From an uncultured Syntrophaceae bacterium (GTDB taxonomy: Bacteria; Desulfobacterota; BSN033; UBA1163): a stretch of DNA of 38,735 bases. The translations under genes were made by a program, and so were the position numbers. Numbering within the stretch: the stretch's first letter is position 1; each line of letters starts with the position of its first letter. Below the pieces are notes generated by a model. It ran no database searches. It was given only the letters and a program-made list of their open reading frames with translations, and had not been told where the DNA came from. The stretch covers positions 1 through 38,735 of the forward strand of contig CAZXMB010000003.1 of assembly GCA_964641715.1 (NCBI GenBank). The letters run 5' to 3'. Shown piece by piece: positions 14,358-23,981 of this stretch.

Positions 14358-16481
14358 TCAGAAAATTTTCTTTCCTCCTGAGAGGGTCCTTTCCTCAACC
14401 TCCTTCTTCCTTGATTTGAGATAGAGAGTAAAGGAGCCGTAGGCATCGCACAGGACAGAGAATTCAGGGCTGACGAAGGTGGTTGTGTTAACCTGCTCAA
14501 TGATCGTAGGTCCATCGATTTGGTTTCCATACCGAAGCCAGTCCCCCTCGAAGACCGGAACCAGTTGAAATCTCCTCTGAGTAGGGAGATAGACCCTCCG
14601 CTTCTTTTTGAAGGCCTTGGAGGGATCCAGTCCCTTATATTTCATCTTGAGAAATTTTGGTTTCTCTGTATGACCAATGCAGGTGAGTCTCAGATTAATC
14701 ACTTCGATCGGTGTCCCAATCTCTTCCAGGGAATACCCGTAGAGGCGATTGTGTTCTGAATGAAATTTTTTTATGACCGATTCAAGTTTCCCCCGATGGA
14801 TCTCTTCCTGGATTACGGTGACATTGACCTCGTGATACTGCTTCACGTATCGCATGTCCATGGAATAGACGAATTGGATTCGATTTTTTGAGACATGTTC
14901 ATTTTTCAGAAGAGTTGTGCCTTCTTTTTCCATCTCTTCGAAGAGTTGACGAAACTTTTTAAGATCCAATTTCTGAAGAGGGCTCACACAAGTCCTAACG
15001 AAGTCATGTTGAAGATTGCTCATCAACATCCCGGCAGCGCAAAAAATGGAGGACTCCTTGGGGATGATCATCACGGGGATCTCCAATTCAAGGGCGATCA
15101 TGCAGGCGTGATTGGGGCCTGCTCCTCCTGCTACAACCAGTGGAAATTCACGCGGGTCTTCTCCTCTCTTTACTGAGACTTCTCGAATCCCAGCAGCCAT
15201 GTTCACATTGATCACATGGTACATTCCGGCGGCAGCCTCGATGACATCCATCTTCATCTTATCAGCGATGTGTTCTTTTATGGCCCTGGTCGCTTTTTCT
15301 TCATTCAGGGGGATCTTTCCTCCTGCGAAATAGTCTTTGTCGAGATAACCTAACAACAGGTCAGCATCCGTGCAGGTAGGCAGCGTTCCTCCCAGGTCGT
15401 AACAGGCAGGCCCTGGTTTTGCTCCCGCGCTCTGCGGTCCCATTCTCAAAAGTCCCCCTTCATCGATCCAACCGATCGATCCGCCTCCTGCGCCAATGGT
15501 GACAATGTTCAGCATAGGCAAGGCCAGCCGTAGACGGTTGATCTCACCTTCCGTGGTCACCAGCGGACTTCGGTTCTTGATCAGGGCGGCATCAAAACTT
15601 GTTCCTCCCATATCAACAGTGATGCAGTCCCTATATCCCTGGACAGCTGTATAGGCAATGCCAGCCACAGGTCCTCCTGCTGGTCCTGAGAGAAGGGTGA
15701 CTACTGCTTTCTCAATCGCATTCTCAGGAGAGATTACTCCACCATTGGACTGCATGATGAGAAGCACACCCTTAAACCCAATCCCTTTGAGCCTGCGAAG
15801 AAGGCTCGTCAAATAGCTTCTCAGGATTGGACCCACATAGGAGTTGAGCACAGTGGTCGAGATGCGATCATAGAAACGTATGGAAGGGAGGACGGTGCTT
15901 GAGAGGGTGAGATAGAGATCGGGCATCCTCTCCCGGATGATTTTGGCGGCCGCTTCTTCATGATCAGGGTTGGCAAAGGAGTTCATGAAACAGATGGCAA
16001 TGGCCTCGATCCCTTCTTCTGTGAACAGTTTCATCGAATCTTCCACATCTGATGAATGGAATGGAGTGATCACCTCTCCTTTATAATCCAGACGTTCCTC
16101 AATGGAGTGGCGAAGATATCGTGGAACCAATGGCATGACATTGGTGAAACGATTATTATATTGCTCCTCACGAATCCCCCTCCTCATCTCAAGGGTATCC
16201 CTGAGCCCTTTGGTGGTGAGAAGTCCTGTCTTGGCTCCCCGATAGGTGAGCACCGCATTGGTCGTGACCGTTGTCCCATGGACAATCGTATCGACCTCTT
16301 TGATAAATTGTTGAATAGAGATCTTTCGACCTTTCGCCATCTCCTCCAGACCATTCATCAGACCAATGGAGGGGTCATCCGGTGTAGAAAGAACTTTGTA
16401 GATCTCTGTATTCCCGTCTTCTTGAGCCAGAATGAAGTCCGTAAAGGTTCCACCCACATCAATCCCGATCTTATATTTCAT
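14358..16481 (-). CDS. Hydantoinase/oxoprolinase family A subunit (ATP-dependent, HyuA/OplA/AcxA-like)
   Basis: MKYKIGIDVGGTFTDFIL, VVHGTTVTTNA, DMGGTSFD; 707 aa. Confidence 0.9.
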   Translation of the reverse strand: MKYKIGIDVGGTFTDFILAQEDGNTEIYKVLSTPDDPSIGLMNGLEEMAKGRKISIQQFIKEVDTIVHGTTVTTNAVLTYRGAKTGLLTTKGLRDTLEMRRGIREEQYNNRFTNVMPLVPRYLRHSIEERLDYKGEVITPFHSSDVEDSMKLFTEEGIEAIAICFMNSFANPDHEEAAAKIIRERMPDLYLTLSSTVLPSIRFYDRISTTVLNSYVGPILRSYLTSLLRRLKGIGFKGVLLIMQSNGGVISPENAIEKAVVTLLSGPAGGPVAGIAYTAVQGYRDCITVDMGGTSFDAALIKNRSPLVTTEGEINRLRLALPMLNIVTIGAGGGSIGWIDEGGLLRMGPQSAGAKPGPACYDLGGTLPTCTDADLLLGYLDKDYFAGGKIPLNEEKATRAIKEHIADKMKMDVIEAAAGMYHVINVNMAAGIREVSVKRGEDPREFPLVVAGGAGPNHACMIALELEIPVMIIPKESSIFCAAGMLMSNLQHDFVRTCVSPLQKLDLKKFRQLFEEMEKEGTTLLKNEHVSKNRIQFVYSMDMRYVKQYHEVNVTVIQEEIHRGKLESVIKKFHSEHNRLYGYSLEEIGTPIEVINLRLTCIGHTEKPKFLKMKYKGLDPSKAFKKKRRVYLPTQRRFQLVPVFEGDWLRYGNQIDGPTIIEQVNTTTFVSPEFSVLCDAYGSFTLYLKSRKKEVEERTLSGGKKIF

Positions 16482-16497
16482 TGTCGGTTGACCTCTT

Positions 16498-18297
16498 TCA
16501 TCGCTTCTTCGCTATGGGGCCTCTCCGTTTTGCTGTCTCTTCTTCATCCACAACAAGTGTCTGGGGATCAATTACCACCCCATAATCCTCTTTCGCCTTC
16601 TCAATGGAAACGAAGCCATTGCGGACATCTTTCAGAACCTTTTCTATGGGTCTTTTCAATGGGTCGCCGTATCCTCCGCCACCTCCTGCAATCTCATGGA
16701 AGACGGCTCCCTTTGGGATACCTCTGATCACATCCTTCGATTTAGGAGAATGGATGCGACCATCTGGATAGATCAAATCGAGTTTATTCAATGCTCCCTC
16801 TTTCCCCCCAAATAAACCAAAAGCCCTTGCCTCCTCATCCACTCCATCTCCAAAGACAATTCCGGTCACCTCTTCACCGTAGATTTTGAAGATCGTCTCC
16901 ACACCGAGCCCACCCCGCCACTGACCTGCCCCTGCGGAGTCGGTTACATATTCGTGTTTCAGAAGGAGATGAGGGGTGGTGAGTTCGAACATCTCCGGAT
17001 CCTGGGCGAGGATGCCTCCAGCACAATTGATCAGGCCGATATGGTCATACCCATCCACTCCATAGGTTGCTCCAGAACCTCCTTTCAGGGCATTGAAGAG
17101 GATATCCACATAGGGCGCATTCTTTCTCGGATCTTTCCCGGAAATGGCAAAGGCGAGCATCCGATTCCATCCAGCGGTCACCCTTTCAGGCAGTGCCTTT
17201 GAGAGAGCCTTGAGGATGGCATCGGCATGGGGACCGGTGATACTGTTTCCAAAGGTGGAGGCTCCTGGGAATTTCACATTAAGGAAAGTCCCTTCAGGAA
17301 TGTGGATATGAATCGGCCGCATCATCCCATCATTATGTGGCATATCCGGGTTGACCAACATGAGAAAGGTTAATGTGATGGCTGAGACGCTTGCTGCATA
17401 AGGGGCATTGACAAATCCTTCTGTTTGTGGGTCCGTTCCAGTGTAGTCGAAATAGATATTGCTTCCCTTGATCTTAATCGTTAGAGAGATTTTGAATTTT
17501 GAACCTTCATGGAAACCATCGTAGTAAACGTAACTCTCTGCCTGATAGATCCCATCAGGAATCGCCTCGATCTCTTTCTTCATCATCTTCTCTGTGGAAT
17601 TGAAGAGATACTCGATATGAGATTCAAAAACCTCCCTTCCATAGCGATCCAGTAAGGAGAGGATGCCCCTCTCCCCCACCACACATCCTCCCATCTCTGC
17701 CCGAATGTCCTCCTCCACAATGGTGTATCGAATATTTGAGAAGATGAGATTCCAGACATCCTTTCTAAATTGGCCCTTCTCATAAATCTTTACAGGAGGT
17801 ATTCTTAATCCTTCTTGCCAGACCTCTCTTGCCTGGGGATTGTATCCCCCTGAGACAGCCCCTCCTACATCTGCCTGATGGCCCTTACAAGCTGCCCAAG
17901 CGACCAGATTGCCTTTATAAAAGATGGGTTTAAAGACGGCGATGTCCGAGAGCTGATTTCCACGTGTAAAGACATCATTATGGAGGATTACATCTCCGGG
18001 AGAAATCTCCTCTCCAAAGTATTCCACGATGTACTGGCAGACAGGCTGAAGGGCGAAGGCGAGGACAGGGATATATTCTGTTTGTTCAAGCATCCGGCCT
18101 CTGGCATCATAGAGGCCCGTGACAAAATCCCTGGCCTCATTCAGGATGGGTGAGCGGGTTGTTCTCAGGAGCGTCAACCCCATCTCCTCGGTGATCGATT
18201 TAAACCTCCGCTGCAGAACCGATACAAGAATCTTATCTATCTTTTGTCCCTTTGACGGATGCTTCTTTTTTTTCACTTTCACCTTTTCACCTTTCAC
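16498..18297 (-). CDS. Hydantoinase B/oxoprolinase family subunit (HyuB/OplB-like)
   Basis: ITEEMGLTLLRTTRSPILNEARDF, NDVFTRGNQLSDI, GGGGYGDPLKRP; 599 aa. The GTG start overlaps the upstream stop by 11 nt, so the exact start is uncertain. Confidence 0.88.
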   Translation of the reverse strand: MKGEKVKVKKKKHPSKGQKIDKILVSVLQRRFKSITEEMGLTLLRTTRSPILNEARDFVTGLYDARGRMLEQTEYIPVLAFALQPVCQYIVEYFGEEISPGDVILHNDVFTRGNQLSDIAVFKPIFYKGNLVAWAACKGHQADVGGAVSGGYNPQAREVWQEGLRIPPVKIYEKGQFRKDVWNLIFSNIRYTIVEEDIRAEMGGCVVGERGILSLLDRYGREVFESHIEYLFNSTEKMMKKEIEAIPDGIYQAESYVYYDGFHEGSKFKISLTIKIKGSNIYFDYTGTDPQTEGFVNAPYAASVSAITLTFLMLVNPDMPHNDGMMRPIHIHIPEGTFLNVKFPGASTFGNSITGPHADAILKALSKALPERVTAGWNRMLAFAISGKDPRKNAPYVDILFNALKGGSGATYGVDGYDHIGLINCAGGILAQDPEMFELTTPHLLLKHEYVTDSAGAGQWRGGLGVETIFKIYGEEVTGIVFGDGVDEEARAFGLFGGKEGALNKLDLIYPDGRIHSPKSKDVIRGIPKGAVFHEIAGGGGGYGDPLKRPIEKVLKDVRNGFVSIEKAKEDYGVVIDPQTLVVDEEETAKRRGPIAKKR

Positions 18298-19666
18298 CTT
18301 TTACTATTTCTATTAGCTTCACTTTTCCGGTAGCCCCTGTTTCGATGGAGATCGAATCAGGTGGAACGAGTTCGATCTCTGGGTTGACCCTGAGGTTGTC
18401 TTTCATATACTTTTTTATCTCTTCCTTCAGGGCCTCTTTCTCCTCCTGTTTTACACTCCATCCATATTCCAGGAGCAATTTTAAGGGGGGCTTCACCAGT
18501 GGTCCGGGTTGGTCGAGCAGAATCTTGAAGACGCCGGTGGTCTTCGGGTGAAATCGGGCAATGGCATCCTTAATCGCAGAGGGATAGATATTCACCCCTT
18601 TGACAATAAGCATATCATCTCCACGGCCCAGAATTTGGAATCGAATTCCAGGGAAACCGCATTCACAGGGCTTAGTAAAGATCTGGAGGATATCGCCAAG
18701 GAGATATCGAAGAAAAGGTCCTCCTTCCCAATCGATGAACGTGAAGACCATCTCGCCAATGGCGCCATCGACCATCTCCATTGGTTTTTTTGTCTCAGGG
18801 TCGATCAATTCAAGGATGCAGTGATCCGGAGAGATGAAGTGCATTCCCCGATATTCTTCATCTCCACAACATATTCCGTGAAAGGCATGACCTCCTCCGG
18901 TATGGTCGAAGATCCTCGCACGAAACCCTTTACGAAGCCTCTCCCGAATGGCTGGAATCCCGCCTCCAGGCTCTGCCGCACAGAGAAACCATTGTATCCC
19001 AAGTTCACTCGCCTCTTTTCCTATGAGGGAGGGAGCTTTCTCAATCAGGTATTCTCCGAATGAGGGTGTGGCAATGAGGGCTTGAGGTCGGGTCAGAAGG
19101 AGAAAGTCAATGATTCTCTTGGTCCCCCCTTCCACGCCGACGGGTACACAGCAGAGGCCCATGGCCTGAATCCCATCGGAGAGGGGGAGACCACCGGTGA
19201 ACATGCTGAGGGAGAGGGCCTGAAGAATGATGTGGCCCGGTCTCAGACCTACCCTCCAGTATTTCCGTGCATGCATCTCATTGACGACCTCCACATCATG
19301 TTTCGTCAAGGTATAGAGAGTTGGAACACCTGTTGTGCCTGAGGTCGAACTGATTCGTACGATTTTTTCAATGGGAGCGCAGGTGATAAGCCCATAGGGA
19401 TGACCGAAACGTTCAATGGATTCCTGCTGGATTCTCCGGTGTTCATCCTTGGTCATCAGGGGGAGTCTTTGAAAATCCTCAAAGGAGCGGATATCCTGAG
19501 GGGTGAGGCCTTCTTCCTTAAATTTTTTGCGATAAAAGATAGAATTTTCATAATCGTATTTGAGTTGCTTCTTAAGTCTCCTCCATTGGAGCCTTCTCAT
19601 CTCCTCCTCGGACATCGCCTCTATCTTCCCGTTCCAGAGTTTCCGCTCAACAAAATATTCATTCAT
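18287..19666 (-). CDS. PaaK-family adenylate-forming ligase (phenylacetate-CoA ligase / F390 synthetase-like)
   Basis: LRRLQW..LK.QL.Y.YENS.FYRKKF and SSTSGTTGVPT (AMP-binding P-loop). 459 aa, the size of the PaaK family. Confidence 0.85.
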   Translation of the reverse strand: MNEYFVERKLWNGKIEAMSEEEMRRLQWRRLKKQLKYDYENSIFYRKKFKEEGLTPQDIRSFEDFQRLPLMTKDEHRRIQQESIERFGHPYGLITCAPIEKIVRISSTSGTTGVPTLYTLTKHDVEVVNEMHARKYWRVGLRPGHIILQALSLSMFTGGLPLSDGIQAMGLCCVPVGVEGGTKRIIDFLLLTRPQALIATPSFGEYLIEKAPSLIGKEASELGIQWFLCAAEPGGGIPAIRERLRKGFRARIFDHTGGGHAFHGICCGDEEYRGMHFISPDHCILELIDPETKKPMEMVDGAIGEMVFTFIDWEGGPFLRYLLGDILQIFTKPCECGFPGIRFQILGRGDDMLIVKGVNIYPSAIKDAIARFHPKTTGVFKILLDQPGPLVKPPLKLLLEYGWSVKQEEKEALKEEIKKYMKDNLRVNPEIELVPPDSISIETGATGKVKLIEIVKGER

Positions 19667-20069
19667 CTTTTGCTTCGACCTCTAAGATCTCGATTCTCTC
19701 TTCTGAGGAATGGGGAGGGATGAAGAAGGCGATCCTTCCATGGGCCCCTTTTCGAGGGAAACCTTCGATCAGTTTAAAACCGTTCTCCAAGAGCCTTTTC
19801 ATAACATCGTCCAATCCTTCCACCTCATAACAGATATGATTTACTCCTAACCGATCCCCTCGAAGAGCCTTCACCATAGGAAGTTCAGGATTTTCATAAT
19901 GAAGGAGCTCGATCTCGATCTGGCCTATTTTGAAGATGCCGATCTTCAACTGGACATCCGGGATCTCAACAGTTTTATCAAGTTCCATCCCAAGGACTCT
20001 GGAATAGAGGGTCAATGCCTCTTTAAAATCTCTGACCACAATTCCAATGTGGTTTATTTTTTCAAACAT
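19659..20069 (-). CDS. VOC-superfamily protein, methylmalonyl-CoA epimerase-like
   Basis: INHIGIVVRDFKEAL..LG, IELLHYENP, GVNHICYEVEGLDD. 136 aa. Overlaps the ligase start by 8 nt. Confidence 0.8.
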   Translation of the reverse strand: MFEKINHIGIVVRDFKEALTLYSRVLGMELDKTVEIPDVQLKIGIFKIGQIEIELLHYENPELPMVKALRGDRLGVNHICYEVEGLDDVMKRLLENGFKLIEGFPRKGAHGRIAFFIPPHSSEERIEILEVEAKDE

Positions 20070-20073
20070 CTCT

Positions 20074-21390
20074 TCATCCTTTTCGCATCAAACCGGGTAG
20101 ATAGAGGGCGATCTCTGGAAAGATCATGATGGTGATCAATGTCAATGCCTCGCATAGAACAAATGGAAGCGTGGAGCGGATGATGATCGCCATCGGAGTC
20201 GTGGGTTGCATCCCTTTCATCACAAAGAGTTGTAGACCAAAGGGAGGAGTGAGATTCCCCATGTCCATATTGATAAGAGTCATGGCAGCCACCCATAAGG
20301 GGTTGAAGCCCAGGGCCTTGATCACCGGCATATAGATGGGAACCGCAATGACCGCTATGGAGAGATTGTCCATAAAAAAGCCGAGAAAGAGGAGGGTCAC
20401 CTGCATACAGATCAGAACCAATATGGGAGGCAGTTCCAGTTTGACCACAGCCTGGATGAGACCGCTGCTTGCACCCGAGAAGGCAAGTATCTGGCTGAAG
20501 ACCATCGATGCCATGATGATGATGAACATGAAAGTGGTCATCTTGACCGTTCCGAATAGACACCTTCTAAATACTTCCCAATTCATCCCTCCATAAAAGG
20601 CGGATAGAAGAATTGAGCCGATGGCGCCCATGGCCGCTGCCTCGGAGGGTGTCGCCATCCCCAAGAAGATGATTCCTACCACTAAAAAGATGATGAGCCC
20701 AAGAGGAAGCACATAAATTGTTGTCTCTTTTAATTTCCTGGTTAAGTGGATTGGAGGAATATCATAGGGAGGAGCGATCTCTGGCTGGATCCAGCATCGG
20801 GTCACGATATAGATAGCATAAAAGGAGGCAAGCAGAAGGCCTGGGAGAATCCCAGCGATCAGCATTCCGCCTACGGAGACTTCAATCAATGTGGCCAAAA
20901 TGACAGCTAAAATACTGGGAGGGATCAACATGGCAAGGGCACCGCTTCCCATGATGGGACCAATGCTCATGACCTTTTGATAGCCCCGGCGCTCCATTTC
21001 TGGAATTAATAAAGAACCCAGCATGGAAGTATTAGCAATGGTAGAACCACTTGTGGCAGCGAAGACCGTTCCGGAGGCGACCGCAAGAAGTCCCAATCTG
21101 CCGGGAACCCGGCCGATCCAATAATCCAGGGCATCAATGGCACGAAGGGCCATCTTAGAGTGGAACATCACCTCACCCATCAGGATAAACATGGGGACCG
21201 TAAGGAGACTAAAGGAGGTAAGGCTTTCTTCAAGATTAAGAATCAATAGCTTACATCCGGAGACTCCTCCCATAAATGCCAGGGTTCCGATGAGGTTGGC
21301 AAAGAGAAAAGAGATCCCCACAGGTAAACCCATAAACATGAGGAAAACAGTCCCGCCGATGAGCGATAATAAGGCTATCCACCATTCCAT
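20074..21390 (-). CDS. dctM: TRAP transporter large permease subunit
   Basis: 438-aa polytopic membrane protein with typical DctM blocks (FMGLPVGISF, ATSGSTIANT, PPFGLQLFV). Confidence 0.9.
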   Translation of the reverse strand: MEWWIALLSLIGGTVFLMFMGLPVGISFLFANLIGTLAFMGGVSGCKLLILNLEESLTSFSLLTVPMFILMGEVMFHSKMALRAIDALDYWIGRVPGRLGLLAVASGTVFAATSGSTIANTSMLGSLLIPEMERRGYQKVMSIGPIMGSGALAMLIPPSILAVILATLIEVSVGGMLIAGILPGLLLASFYAIYIVTRCWIQPEIAPPYDIPPIHLTRKLKETTIYVLPLGLIIFLVVGIIFLGMATPSEAAAMGAIGSILLSAFYGGMNWEVFRRCLFGTVKMTTFMFIIIMASMVFSQILAFSGASSGLIQAVVKLELPPILVLICMQVTLLFLGFFMDNLSIAVIAVPIYMPVIKALGFNPLWVAAMTLINMDMGNLTPPFGLQLFVMKGMQPTTPMAIIIRSTLPFVLCEALTLITIMIFPEIALYLPGLMRKG

Positions 21391-21407
21391 CTATCTGTTC
21401 TCCAGGA

Positions 21408-21887
21408 TTAACTCTTCAATTTTTGGTAGTAACCGATCATCTGTTTAAAAAATTGAATCGTAAAAAAGAACCCTCCAATCGGGATGATCATTAAGATGAG
21501 GAACATGGGTGTTTTTAAGGACTCTAAGGCGGGGACTCCCCTTTTAAAGTAATCCCATGTGACCTGCCCCCCAAACCAGGTGTAGGTGAGCATCACCATC
21601 CCACCCACAAAGGAAGTAATAACATTGAGCCTCTTTCTGGTTCGTTCACTGAAATGGTTGATCAATATATCGACACGGATATGACCTTCTTCCTTCAATA
21701 CAAGGGCAGCCCCTAAGAAAGGGATGTAGAGCATGATATATTCTGTAATTTCCAACATCCAGTGGATGGGTCGGTTAAAACAGTATCGCAGGATAACGTC
21801 TATACAGGTTCCGACCGTCGAAAATACCAGAAGGCCTCCTGCTACCCAGAAGAGAATGACCAGAATTTGATCAAATATCTTTCCCAT
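21408..21887 (-). CDS. dctQ: TRAP transporter small permease subunit
   Basis: Four-TM protein between dctP and dctM. ATG at 21887 is preferred over the GTG at 21926, because the GTG lies inside the intercistronic hairpin. Confidence 0.8.
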   Translation of the reverse strand: MGKIFDQILVILFWVAGGLLVFSTVGTCIDVILRYCFNRPIHWMLEITEYIMLYIPFLGAALVLKEEGHIRVDILINHFSERTRKRLNVITSFVGGMVMLTYTWFGGQVTWDYFKRGVPALESLKTPMFLILMIIPIGGFFFTIQFFKQMIGYYQKLKS

Positions 21888-21918
21888 CCTTTTCCTCGTC
21901 TGCCCCAGCTCCTCCTTA

Positions 21919-21955
21919 CCCCTCACCCCTTCTGCAATAAAGAAGGAGTGAGGGG
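21919..21955 (-). promoter_or_regulatory. Intercistronic stem-loop between dctP and dctQ
   Basis: CCCCTCACCCCTTCT-GCAATAA-AGAAGGAGTGAGGGG: 14 bp with one mismatch and a 7-nt loop. Confidence 0.6.
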
Positions 21956-21968
21956 GTGAAGTTCAAAA

Positions 21969-22940
21969 TTATGGGCTTAAAAGTTTCTTCAATTTTGGAC
22001 CGAGTTCCGGAGCTTTTTTGAAGACTTCATCCCAACCTGCTTTATAGGCAAGGTCAACATACCATTTCGTATCCTCAGAGCTGAATTTGATAAATTTCAT
22101 TCCTTTTGCCTGCATCCCTTTTAATTCTTTTTCTCCAAGTTCTTCATAAACCTTTGTAAATTTCGCTTCATTCTCAATCATGAGGTCGGACATCAACTTC
22201 TGCATTGGTTTTGGAAGTTTATTCCAGGTATCCAGGTTAATCAGGGTCTCGAGGTTCATCGAATAGAGTTTTGGTTCAACGATAAATTTACATACCTCTG
22301 GCCATCCCATCGAGATATTACCCAAAACTGACCAGGCATAACCATCCACCACTCCGCGCTCAAGAGCAGTATAGACTTCTGATCCAGGCAGTGTGATGGG
22401 AACAGCCCCCAAAGCCCTCACAAAGGGTTCGTAGGTGGCTGAGGTACGAATCTTCTGGCCGGCCATTTCTTGAGGTCGTTTAACAGATTTATTGGTAAAG
22501 ATATGGAACCAGACACCATGTTCTGGTCTGCCCAGATAAAAGAGATTTTGTTTCTTTAGGAGATCGGATCTTAAATCGTAATATCCGCTCTTCCGCTCTT
22601 TTGGTGGAGTCAAGCGACTCAGGTGGGTATAGGCGGCTCCGGTAACCGCGCCCCCGTAGTAGGCCTCGCATCCGAAAATAATATCCACCACCCCTGTTCG
22701 GGCCGCCTCAAATTGCTTAAAGGCAGGGATAGCCTCAGGTCCTCCCACAAACTTGATCACCACTTCGCCCTTAGATTTTTTATTGACTTCTTCCACAAAG
22801 GCCCACCAGGCGGTGAGATTGATATCATCCTTTGGAAGAAAGGTGGCCATTTTAAGTTCCACTGCCTCAAGGGGAGCGTTAAAAACACCAATGGTAAAGA
22901 TCATCATGATAATCAATAGGCTTATTATTATCTTCTTCAT
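21969..22940 (-). CDS. dctP: TRAP transporter substrate-binding protein (DctP family)
   Basis: Signal peptide and DctP-like fold blocks (LKMATFLPKD, WFHIFTNK, TSATYEPF). GGAGGAGG RBS. Confidence 0.9.
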   Translation of the reverse strand: MKKIIISLLIIMMIFTIGVFNAPLEAVELKMATFLPKDDINLTAWWAFVEEVNKKSKGEVVIKFVGGPEAIPAFKQFEAARTGVVDIIFGCEAYYGGAVTGAAYTHLSRLTPPKERKSGYYDLRSDLLKKQNLFYLGRPEHGVWFHIFTNKSVKRPQEMAGQKIRTSATYEPFVRALGAVPITLPGSEVYTALERGVVDGYAWSVLGNISMGWPEVCKFIVEPKLYSMNLETLINLDTWNKLPKPMQKLMSDLMIENEAKFTKVYEELGEKELKGMQAKGMKFIKFSSEDTKWYVDLAYKAGWDEVFKKAPELGPKLKKLLSP

Positions 22941-23048
22941 GATCCTCCTCCTTTCGAATTGATCAGAAATGATTTTTATATTTATTAATTAATCCTCTTG
23001 CCATCCTTTTAAAACGAATTAAATCTCACCTCCTTTTCTATTAAAATC

Positions 23049-23267
23049 TCATTCTCCCTTAGCTAAAAGGGCAGTGATGAAAGAAACACCCCTCTGGGCC
23101 CAACCTTTCACCGCATCCGTCAGGGGTTCCAACATTGGGCTGGTCTTCACCCCAAAAGGGATATGGGAAGATTTCGCCACTGCCTCAATAATCTTAAAAC
23201 TGGAGCTTAAACTTTTTTCGAGATCGCCTTTCATGGTGGGTGAAGAGAATGGGTATAGATTCACCAT
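23049..23267 (-). pseudogene. Possible remnant of a dihydroorotate/dihydropyrimidine dehydrogenase-like TIM-barrel gene
   Basis: 72-aa ORF whose ATG overlaps the gntR stop (TAATG). NLYPFSSPTMKG..IIEAVAKSSHIPFGVKTSPML..AVKGWAQRGVSFIT resembles the N(L)SCPN...PV.VKLSP...aGadgi block of DHOD/DPD-type enzymes, but covers only about a quarter of such a protein. Confidence 0.25.
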
Positions 23268-23953
23268 TACAACTTGATGTTTCCCTTTTCTATTTCAGAG
23301 AGGATGACCTCTTTACCCACTCGGATATGTTCCTGGACCAGTTTTTTAAGCAGATCGATATCCTTCCTTTTGATGGCATTGATCATCCTCATATGGTGTT
23401 CAATGGAAATCCTTGCCTTTTCCGGAACCCTGAGGATAGCTGACCGATATTGGAAGATTTGATCCCTCAGCCCTTTAATGATGAAAAGGAGCCTATCGTT
23501 TTTTGAAAGTTGGTTCAGGTAGTCATGAAACTCAGTATTCAAAGTACTCACTTTATTCAATTTATTCTTCAGGATATATTGTTCCGATTCCTTAATGTTT
23601 TTTTCTAACCAATGGATATCTTCTTTCTGGACATGACTCATGGCCAGGCCTACAGCATAACTTTCTAAAAGACCTCTAATATCGAAGATCTCTTCTATAT
23701 CCTTTTTTGTAAATCGACTGACGATGAAACCTCCCTTCAGCAAACGACTGACGAAGCCCTCCTGTTCCAGTTTTAAAAGGGCCTCTCGAATGGGGGTGGG
23801 ACTGGCTCCGATCTCCTGAAGAAGACGCCCAATGGAGAGCCTTTCCCCGGGAGACATTTCACCAGTGAGGATTGCCTCTTTAATGGAGAGATAGACTTCA
23901 TCCCTGAGAACAGGTTTGGCGAAGACCTTTAGCTTTTGAAGAGAATTCAGCAT
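23267..23953 (-). CDS. GntR-family transcriptional regulator with FCD ligand domain
   Basis: N-terminal wHTH (GERLSIGRLLQEIGASPTPIREALLKLEQEGFV) plus a helical FCD-type C-terminal domain. First gene of the minus-strand operon. Confidence 0.9.
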   Translation of the reverse strand: MLNSLQKLKVFAKPVLRDEVYLSIKEAILTGEMSPGERLSIGRLLQEIGASPTPIREALLKLEQEGFVSRLLKGGFIVSRFTKKDIEEIFDIRGLLESYAVGLAMSHVQKEDIHWLEKNIKESEQYILKNKLNKVSTLNTEFHDYLNQLSKNDRLLFIIKGLRDQIFQYRSAILRVPEKARISIEHHMRMINAIKRKDIDLLKKLVQEHIRVGKEVILSEIEKGNIKL

Positions 23954-23981
23954 ATGGTATACTAAATATCATATACCATAT
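23952..23981. promoter_or_regulatory. Putative GntR operator (10-bp inverted repeat)
   Basis: ATATGGTATA-N10-TATACCATAT, a perfect inverted repeat. It overlaps the gntR start codon and contains a GT..AC core of the type bound by FadR/GntR regulators. Confidence 0.45.

Follow-up and report, generated by a model that had tools for sequence, protein, structure and literature searches.

The stretch of DNA analysed here (hereafter "the window") comprises 38,735 nucleotides from an uncultured Syntrophaceae bacterium (GCA_964641715.1, contig CAZXMB010000003.1, positions 1-38,735 of the forward strand), whose genome is 93% complete. Within it lies an operon that unites a tripartite ATP-independent periplasmic (TRAP) importer, a PaaK-family coenzyme A (CoA) ligase, a small protein of the vicinal oxygen chelate (VOC) type and a two-subunit enzyme of the hydantoinase/oxoprolinase kind, HyuAB. 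This arrangement is not the product of chance: the same genes recur in 80 species-level genomes. The region is a genuine, conserved and uncharacterised catabolic module that is built from known enzyme families and follows a known logic; its combination of genes and the subfamily of its HyuB are new. We put at roughly 0.55 the probability that the operon imports an N-heterocyclic or lactam carboxylate and opens it by means of CoA activation, stereo-inversion and ATP-dependent lactam opening.

The features of the operon, listed in the direction of its transcription with lengths in amino acids (aa), are these:

23952-23981, no strand: candidate GntR operator, a 10-bp inverted repeat (ATATGGTATA / TATACCATAT) with a 10-nt spacer
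23267-23953, minus strand: gntR, 228 aa, GntR and FCD domains (PF00392, PF07729), first gene of the operon
23049-23267, minus strand: PreA-like remnant open reading frame (ORF), 72 codons, between gntR and dctP
21969-22940, minus strand: dctP, 323 aa, TRAP solute-binding protein with a signal peptide (PF03480)
21408-21926, minus strand: dctQ, TRAP small membrane subunit (PF04290)
20074-21390, minus strand: dctM, TRAP large membrane subunit (PF06808; TIGR00786)
19659-20069, minus strand: VOC gene, 136 aa, single domain (Glyoxalase_4), methylmalonyl-CoA-epimerase-like
18287-19666, minus strand: ligase gene, 459 aa, PaaK-family adenylate-forming CoA ligase with AMP-binding_C_2
16498-18297, minus strand: hyuB, 599 aa, GTG start, Hydantoinase_B (PF02538)
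14358-16481, minus strand: hyuA, 707 aa, Hydant_A_N, Hydantoinase_A and Hydant_A_C

A sequence-only reading of the window had described these eight minus-strand genes and the remnant. Our ORF calls agree with its coordinates, and the Pfam and NCBIfam profile searches from which we take family labels and equivalog cut-offs agree with its domain label for every gene. The ORF coordinates also bear out two of the tight junctions that it had claimed, namely an overlap of 8 nt between the VOC and ligase genes and a gap of 4 nt between dctM and the VOC gene. The third, an overlap of 11 nt between the ligase gene and hyuB, holds if the GTG at 18297 is the start of hyuB; this start and the overlap are uncertain because the alignment with the caprolactamase subunit CapB begins only at HyuB residue 20. 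Downstream, rmuC converges on hyuA with the two stop codons 13 nt apart, and the operon therefore ends there. All eight genes are under purifying selection, with a ratio of nonsynonymous to synonymous substitution (dN/dS) of 0.05-0.18 against three sister genomes from sister genera.

Conservation of the gene set

A profile scan with an alignment of the ligase, in which each GTDB species was represented by one genome, yielded 80 loci with ligase orthologues of 58-90% identity. (Below, L numbers denote loci, G numbers related genomes, and C26 and C32 other contigs of the window's own genome.) These loci come from uncultured Syntrophaceae and "Deltaproteobacteria" (the window's kin), Desulfobacterales, Desulfomonilaceae, Desulfatiglandaceae, Gaiellales, Rhodospirillales and many Burkholderiales. 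Linkage was counted only in the 45 loci that have at least 6 kb upstream and at least 2.5 kb downstream of the ligase. In every one of the 45, orthologues of both hyuA and hyuB are found no more than 9 kb from the ligase orthologue, and in 43 the VOC gene is as close. The 45 belong to Syntrophaceae, Desulfobacterales, Desulfomonile, Gaiellales and Burkholderiales, and the linkage holds in at least four phyla. Six loci have no hyuAB, and in these the sequence ends less than 1.4 kb upstream of the ligase.

In a second sample, consisting of 41 related genomes searched with the window's proteins, the closest relatives (G016, G004 and G008) keep VOC-ligase-hyuB/hyuA together. Metagenome contigs repeat the same co-occurrence of core genes, and six of them, from different metagenomes, carry the same arrangement as the window with proteins 98-100% identical. 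The order VOC-ligase-hyuB-hyuA is that of the window's family; the usual order elsewhere is hyuA-hyuB-VOC-ligase. The ligase and VOC genes are thus co-conserved with hyuAB, and HyuAB does not group with the housekeeping oxoprolinases; on both counts the sequence-only reading stands.

Seven loci of window-class relatives lack the PaaK-type ligase, and their HyuA and HyuB fall in the same clades as those of the window. In at least three of them (L017-L019) an unrelated AMP-binding ligase adjoins hyuA. Because the PaaK-type ligase has been displaced by another AMP-binding ligase, the CoA-activation step seems integral to the system. Five of the seven loci have a methylmalonyl-CoA mutase (MCM)-like gene. 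Thirteen loci encode an additional ligase, which is of the AMP-binding type.

The HyuA and HyuB trees conflict over the AMP-ligase-type loci (L017-L023 versus the window). Their HyuA proteins are nested among the PaaK-linked ones and are 71-76% identical to that of the window; their HyuB proteins, at 59-64% identity, form one long-stemmed clade that is basal to all PaaK-linked HyuB. To judge from these trees, the conflict suggests either an exchange of subunits or different evolutionary rates.

HyuAB and its metal site

Both subunits obtain their best family scores with the caprolactamase models, and both fall below the equivalog cut-off of 1000 bits: HyuA scores 707.6 bits against CapA (NF050156) and HyuB 451.2 bits against CapB (NF050157). 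The acetophenone carboxylase models ApcC, ApcA and ApcD give 388, 232 and 139 bits, respectively, against cut-offs of 1250-1500. Sequence identity is 36.5% to CapA and 36.7% to CapB, and to N-methylhydantoinase it is likewise about 36%. Among solved structures, CapAB (6YRA) and a fused N-methylhydantoinase (7HK5) come closest, followed by acetophenone and acetone carboxylases; the PDB entries matched are annotated as 5-oxoprolinase/hydantoinase. In the alignment with CapA, the ATP motifs DxGGTxTD, DxGGT and GxxPGP of HyuA are intact.

In the hydrolase branch of this superfamily there are two subunits only, the beta subunit measures about 560-600 aa, and the alpha subunit carries ASKHA ATP motifs (PMC5214803). 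By its sequence, HyuAB belongs to that branch, with subunits of 707 and 599 aa, intact ATP motifs and no third subunit. A gene for a third (gamma) subunit was found neither in the window nor in the contiguous core of any of the 80 loci, and the same is true of the other marks of a carboxylase, a second alpha' subunit or an enlarged beta subunit. Subunit sizes, the precedence of the CapA/CapB models and the missing gamma subunit all uphold the earlier assignment of HyuAB to the two-subunit lactamase/hydantoinase type, as opposed to the carboxylases.

The family does include acetone and acetophenone carboxylases, and the apc operon contains a CoA ligase (PMC5214803), which together allow a reading in which HyuAB is an ATP-dependent carboxylase. 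It would act on a ketone or an acyl-CoA, and its product, a beta-keto acid or a 2-substituted malonyl-CoA, would pass to the VOC protein and a B12-dependent mutase. The likeness of the VOC protein to methylmalonyl-CoA epimerase is in keeping with such a scheme, as are the MCM-like mutases found in some extended clusters and in a second HyuAB cluster on C26, and the altered metal site of HyuB described below. We nonetheless find a carboxylase improbable. At 599 aa, HyuB has the size of a hydrolase subunit, compared with 684 aa for Apc-beta and 776 aa for the counterpart in acetone carboxylase (PMC8453981, PMC5214803); no gene for a Cys4 gamma subunit stands in the contiguous core of any locus; the Apc models score 139-388 bits as opposed to 708 and 451 for the Cap models; and carboxylate importers are conserved in the cluster.

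The metal of CapB is held by Asp41, His99, Asp102 and His124, and replacement of any of them with Ala inactivates the enzyme; the site is reported to be conserved in all homologues compared, IaaE included (PMC8453981, statement on Figure 3). In a gap-free alignment, the corresponding residues of the window's HyuB are D57, Q115, D118 and H140, a departure from the Asp-His-Asp-His pattern. The Gln at the position of CapB His99 is found in 81 of 81 members of the clade, those of the AMP-ligase type included, and His is retained in CapB, in N-methylhydantoinase and in all nine paralogous HyuB proteins from the same loci and genome. In the tree this clade sits on a long stem, is locally supported at 100% and excludes CapB. 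HyuB was also searched against 1.84 billion cluster representatives. Among the best 150 matches, 26 have Gln, concentrated among the top scores, and 115 have His; nearly all of those with about 40% identity or more carry Gln. On this comparison of sequences, HyuB belongs to a distinct subfamily with an Asp-Gln-Asp-His site that extends beyond the present cassette. The exchange of a metal ligand for Gln bears on the mechanism of ATP-dependent lactam hydrolysis.

Two distant Gln-type relatives, at L123:6833-13654 and L125:217-6381, stand in other settings. One is accompanied by a creatinase/M24-like gene, an acyl-CoA-dehydrogenase-like flavoprotein, a flavin reductase and an IclR regulator; the other directly follows the gene for a bis-molybdopterin guanine dinucleotide oxidoreductase.

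In two-subunit architecture, full-length alignment, ATP motifs and best family score, HyuAB resembles the ATP-dependent caprolactamase CapAB of Pseudomonas jessenii (6YRA) and OplBA, the lactamase of P. putida for valerolactam and caprolactam. It differs from CapAB in its identity of 36-37%, in its scores below the cut-offs and in having Gln for CapB His99 (the H99A variant is inactive). Further, CapAB has a neutral lactam as its substrate and is unlinked to a CoA ligase, a VOC protein or a carboxylate importer. A rival view sees in HyuAB nothing more than a common 5-oxoprolinase, caprolactamase or hydantoinase that acts on a free lactam, with the genes for the ligase, the VOC protein and the TRAP system as passengers of no functional relation to it. 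The caprolactamase matches and the annotations of the PDB entries would suit such an enzyme. Yet the scores lie below the equivalog cut-offs at an identity to CapAB of about 36%, one of four CapB ligands shown to be essential by mutation is replaced (PMC8453981), the supposed passengers are linked to hyuAB across phyla (ligase 45/45, VOC 43/45), and the junctions overlap or measure 4 nt. We therefore consider this view very improbable.

The CoA ligase and the VOC protein

The ligase scores 216 bits with TIGR02155 (cut-off 646) and 231 bits with NF041878 (cut-off 700), and so lies outside both PaaK equivalogs. Its best matches in the PDB are phenylacetate-CoA ligases and 2-hydroxyisobutyryl-CoA synthetase. 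Among 16 orthologues there is no variation in the SSTSGTTGxPT, YxxGD and GRxDD motifs or in the C-terminal Lys. In one Desulfobacteraceae locus (L063:11431-12816) a gene for malonyl-CoA decarboxylase converges on the ligase gene; this is a single occurrence.

The VOC protein has its best NCBIfam match in methylmalonyl-CoA epimerase (TIGR03081), with 79 bits against a cut-off of 115. Four residues, H7, E54, H78 and E127, are invariant in 45 orthologues and constitute a typical VOC metal tetrad. With scores below the cut-offs throughout, HyuAB, the ligase and the VOC protein thus belong to known superfamilies and stand outside the curated functional families within them. At the Gaiellales locus, a gene of the Asp/Glu/hydantoin-racemase family occupies the position of the VOC gene, and this replacement points to a step of stereo-inversion. 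We propose that the VOC protein is an epimerase or racemase.

The importer

DctM scores 301 bits with TIGR00786 (cut-off 268) and DctP 109 bits with NF037995 (cut-off 50). DctP R165, which belongs to the conserved KIR motif, does not vary among 19 orthologues. With its three components and the conserved Arg that is predicted to bind a carboxylate, DctPQM is by its sequence a TRAP transporter. The structural model of DctP (mean predicted local distance difference test, pLDDT, 84.5) has the fold of a TRAP solute-binding protein; the closest structure is that of Polaromonas Bpro_4736 (4MNC/4MNI), with a TM-score of 0.84 and 34% identity.

Orthologous DctPQM systems occur in 22 loci, with DctP 60-88% identical. 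The importer is of the Liv type in 14 loci, that is, an ATP-binding cassette (ABC) transporter with a Peripla_BP_6 binding protein, and Burkholderiales loci have TctC-type receptors of the tripartite tricarboxylate transporter kind. Two of these three importer types (TRAP, ABC and TctC) are carboxylate-specific families.

Redox genes and the molybdenum hydroxylase

Between gntR and dctP the window retains a remnant in which about 60 codons match residues 152-211 or so of a PreA/dihydroorotate-dehydrogenase-like Fe-S flavoprotein of about 420 aa. In a tblastn search with the intact 429-aa gene of L079 (DHO_dh and two 4Fe-4S motifs), the remnant was the sole match in the window, and no intact copy was found elsewhere in the window's genome at its completeness of 93%. 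PreA-like genes of this kind (about 420 aa, DHO_dh and two 4Fe-4S motifs) are present in 11 Desulfobacterota loci. The sister genera L038 and L039 have the gene in full length at the same position, whereas G008 has a copy with an internal deletion and G004/L045 have none. The intact copies imply that the ancestral operon of this family was gntR-preA-like-dctPQM-VOC-ligase-hyuB-hyuA, and that the reductase was lost repeatedly; the window holds a trimmed version from which it is gone. In 26 proteobacterial loci, a gene for a short-chain dehydrogenase/reductase (SDR) directly follows the ligase and is the sole recurrent reductase by the core.

The loss raises the question of whether the pathway survives in this genome only as a relic in decay. 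A PreA-like gene reduced to about 60 codons, damaged or missing in G008 and G004 and intact in L038/L039, with no second copy in the genome, would accord with decay. The other eight genes, however, are intact and under selection (dN/dS 0.05-0.18), and the arrangement recurs at 98-100% protein identity in six metagenome contigs. Further, repeated loss within one family suggests that the reductase is dispensable there, and 26 proteobacterial loci have an SDR instead. We give a relic little credence.

The large subunit of a xanthine dehydrogenase (XDH)-type molybdenum (Mo) hydroxylase is encoded in nine loci, directly upstream of hyuA in Desulfobacterales, and the cluster-linked enzyme is accompanied by its flavin adenine dinucleotide (FAD) subunit and the maturation genes MocA, XdhC and YqeC. 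The window's genome has an orthologue as well, unlinked, on C32. It is 67-72% identical to all cluster-linked copies, a level equal to that of the core proteins, and XdhB- and XdhC-like partners are present. At C32:16465-21314 two small ORFs that encode helical proteins (120 and 136 aa) are dispersed among the genes for the FAD, 2Fe-2S and Mo subunits; our impression is that they resemble the four-helix-bundle proteins common in 23S rRNA intervening sequences. The contig ends directly after the FAD subunit gene.

Proposed pathway and candidate substrates

From gene content, conservation, linkage, motifs and the metal site we infer a substrate class, an order of steps and a role for each enzyme, as follows. 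DctPQM would import a carboxylate that probably bears a small ring, either aromatic or N-heterocyclic, and the PaaK-family ligase would convert it into a CoA thioester. A heteroaromatic ring would then acquire a 2-oxo (lactam) group through the XDH-type Mo-hydroxylase, encoded on C32 here and by hyuA in Desulfobacterales; elsewhere the PreA-like flavoprotein or the SDR may add a redox step, for which the gene has decayed in the window. The VOC protein would interconvert the two configurations at the carbon next to the carbonyl. Finally, HyuA would phosphorylate the lactam oxygen with ATP and HyuB would hydrolyse the ring, giving an amino-dicarboxylyl-CoA that would be degraded further. The sequence-only reading had supposed that the operon serves the catabolism of a cyclic amide or oxo-carboxylic acid, by a route that it could match to no named pathway and that partly resembles the logic of the anaerobic indoleacetate (iaa) pathway; our results support it.

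Several points weigh against this scheme. The roles of the enzymes of this clade are predicted from sequence. Two distant HyuB relatives of the Gln type (42-44% identity) have no CoA ligase in their surroundings, and we therefore rejected the Gln site as a marker of CoA-ester substrates, for which it gives no evidence. The known substrates of PaaK-family enzymes are chiefly arylacetates and 2-hydroxyisobutyrate, which leaves a wide range for the acyl substrate. The structures closest to DctP, 4MNC/4MNI, which are presumably complexes with benzoylformate, share only 34% identity with it. Lastly, neither the hydroxylase nor the reductase is encoded in the window's operon, which may mean a shortened or altered pathway in this organism.

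Another possibility keeps the substrate class and reverses the order: HyuAB would open the free lactam acid, the ligase would activate the ring-opened amino-dicarboxylate, and the VOC protein would epimerise the resulting acyl-CoA in the manner of methylmalonyl-CoA epimerase. All characterised HyuAB-type hydrolases (caprolactamase, N-methylhydantoinase and 5-oxoprolinase) use free substrates (PMC8453981), and the ligase-free Gln-type relatives of HyuB agree with such an order. So do the proximity of the VOC protein to methylmalonyl-CoA epimerases, the malonyl-CoA decarboxylase gene that adjoins the ligase in L063, and the MCM-like mutases near the cassette in L062, L077 and the AMP-ligase-type loci. 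On the other hand, the iaa precedent has been reinterpreted as acting on a CoA ester (PMC5214803), and the racemase family that stands in for the VOC protein in Gaiellales has cyclic or free substrates; gene order decides neither way. We regard the reversed sequence of steps as possible though doubtful, and prefer CoA activation ahead of ring opening.

Two kinds of acid fit every accessory enzyme, namely pyridine carboxylates, for example nicotinate/6-hydroxynicotinate, and indole-type acids, for example 2-oxindole-3-acetate. In the pyridine case, a pyridone-CoA would be reduced by the PreA-like enzyme to a delta-lactam with a stereocentre alpha to the thioester. More specifically, but only tentatively and with the odds well against it, the cassette may encode an oxygen-independent, CoA-dependent and ATP-driven route for an abundant N-heteroaromatic acid, most attractively nicotinate/6-hydroxynicotinate or a related pyridine carboxylate, or alternatively indole-3-acetate/2-oxindole-3-acetate. 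Such an acid would be thioesterified, hydroxylated by the ring N, reduced by the PreA-like enzyme or the SDR, epimerised at the thioester's alpha carbon and opened by the Asp-Gln-Asp-His HyuAB, which would be a new class of lactamase. If true, this would be a third way of breaking such rings beside oxygenases and ATP-independent amidohydrolases, and a route common to sulfate reducers, syntrophs and aerobic Burkholderiales. Literature searches returned nothing relevant on the gene combination, on nicotinoyl-CoA catabolism or on HyuAB in nicotinate breakdown.

To our knowledge, the anaerobic breakdown of N-heterocyclic acids such as pyridines of the vitamin B3 type and indoles of the auxin type has been described in very few organisms, and we know of no enzymes for it in sulfate reducers or syntrophs. 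The cassette is a concrete and widespread candidate, present in at least 80 species-level genomes of Thermodesulfobacteriota, Actinomycetota and Pseudomonadota and on many metagenome contigs.

In one Comamonadaceae lineage (L082, L085 and L087), kynB, kynU and kynA follow the cassette and its SDR gene. Arylformamidase and kynureninase score above their NCBIfam cut-offs at L085:8236-10988, in L082 and in L087, and tryptophan 2,3-dioxygenase is also encoded in L085. The three loci are about 95% identical and so count as one lineage. These genes are a weak hint at a tryptophan- or anthranilate-related substrate.

Comparison with known systems

According to published accounts (Ebenau-Jehle 2012, cited in PMC8360864; PMC5214803; PMC8453981), the upper part of the iaa system of Aromatoleum aromaticum/Azoarcus evansii comprises the ligase IaaB, a Mo-hydroxylase and the gamma-lactamase IaaCE. 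The present system resembles it in joining a PaaK-family ligase, a two-subunit lactamase of the HyuAB type, an XDH-family Mo-hydroxylase and an importer that depends on a binding protein and that is predicted here to carry an aromatic N-heterocyclic acid. The iaa combination of PaaK-type ligase, HyuAB and Mo-hydroxylase is found here too, with the hydroxylase unlinked in the window's genome and linked in Desulfobacterales. IaaC has the same length as HyuA of the window (707 aa), and IaaCE is 37%/36% identical to CapAB (PMC8453981), the same distance as the window's pair.

There are also differences. The VOC epimerase-like gene belongs to the core here, and HyuB has Gln where a conserved His is reported for IaaE (PMC8453981). 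The downstream set of IaaGH (a B12 mutase), IaaF (a decarboxylating acyl-CoA dehydrogenase) and IaaL (a family III CoA-transferase) was found in none of the 80 loci and not in the window. When neighbouring genes in the 80 loci were clustered, no recurrent acyl-CoA dehydrogenase or CoA-transferase emerged, and an MCM-like mutase was present in 2 of the 80. The sequence-only reading had described the operon as partly iaa-like, without the Mo-hydroxylase and the mutase. The hydroxylase does exist, outside the operon, on C32. The cassette is best read as the upper iaa logic without mutase, dehydrogenase and transferase, and not as an iaa operon.

Nicotinate fermentation in Eubacterium barkeri and the isonicotinate route of Mycobacterium INA1 begin with Mo-dependent hydroxylation by the ring N and include hydrolytic ring opening. 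In these routes the pyridone ring is reduced before it is opened, and the isonicotinate route proceeds via the thioester citrazyl-CoA. The proposed pathway shares the logic of hydroxylation, reduction and ring opening with both and the CoA thioester with the latter. Ring opening there is the work of ATP-independent amidohydrolases (enamidase and imidase), and we know of no HyuAB, PaaK-family ligase or VOC protein in either route.

The hyuA, hyuB, hyuC and hyuE genes of Pseudomonas sp. NS671 offer a further parallel: there, too, an ATP-dependent HyuAB has a racemase as its partner, one that acts on the ring carbon adjacent to the carbonyl. The counterpart of that racemase would be the VOC protein here and the gene of the Asp/Glu/hydantoin-racemase family in Gaiellales. 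In contrast to the NS671 system, no locus has an N-carbamoyl-amino-acid amidohydrolase, and a CoA ligase is always present.

Regulation

The gntR gene is itself under strong constraint (dN/dS 0.05-0.06), and orthologues of 82-87% identity head the same operon in L038, L039 and L045. The inverted repeat at 23952-23981 is perfect, and neither of its arms has a further match in the window. It overlaps the gntR ATG and lies immediately downstream of a TTGACA hexamer. The succession of TTGACA, inverted repeat and ATG also precedes gntR in L038, L039, L045 and L036, each with a repeat of its own. The repeat is likely to be the GntR operator, judging from this recurrent placement, and the layout fits a putative operon promoter that is autoregulated and possibly leaderless. 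A scan for promoters and terminators gave counts not above those in shuffled sequence, and no conclusion is built on it. At somewhat better than even odds, the whole is a catabolic operon that is repressed by a GntR/FCD regulator and serves the use of an organic acid taken up from outside, in which a cyclic amide is present from the start or is formed later.

Rearrangements and neighbouring clusters

In a Desulfomonilaceae locus (L086:8138-9502), a DDE transposase gene between the VOC and ligase genes splits an otherwise contiguous core. At L014:11894-12571, in G013, an ORF of 225 aa begins as an N-terminal fragment of HyuA and continues as the C-terminal portion of an AMP-binding ligase, apparently the scar of a rearrangement. 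The HyuA gene downstream of it encodes a protein with 83% identity to HyuA of the window and has no Gln-type HyuB nearby. A search of plasmids with the ligase returned only paralogues of 37-40% identity, in terpenoid or acyl-CoA clusters of Roseobacteraceae and Variovorax, and was uninformative.

The window's own genome has a second GntR-headed cluster at C26:5477-22428, with a HyuA2/HyuB2 pair that has the canonical His. It also encodes a B12-binding small subunit, an MCM-like mutase, an AMP-binding ligase, two TRAP systems and a fusion of 3-hydroxyacyl-CoA dehydrogenase with enoyl-CoA hydratase. A cluster of this type directly adjoins the cassette studied here in G008 (L015/L040), L042 and G013 (L014).

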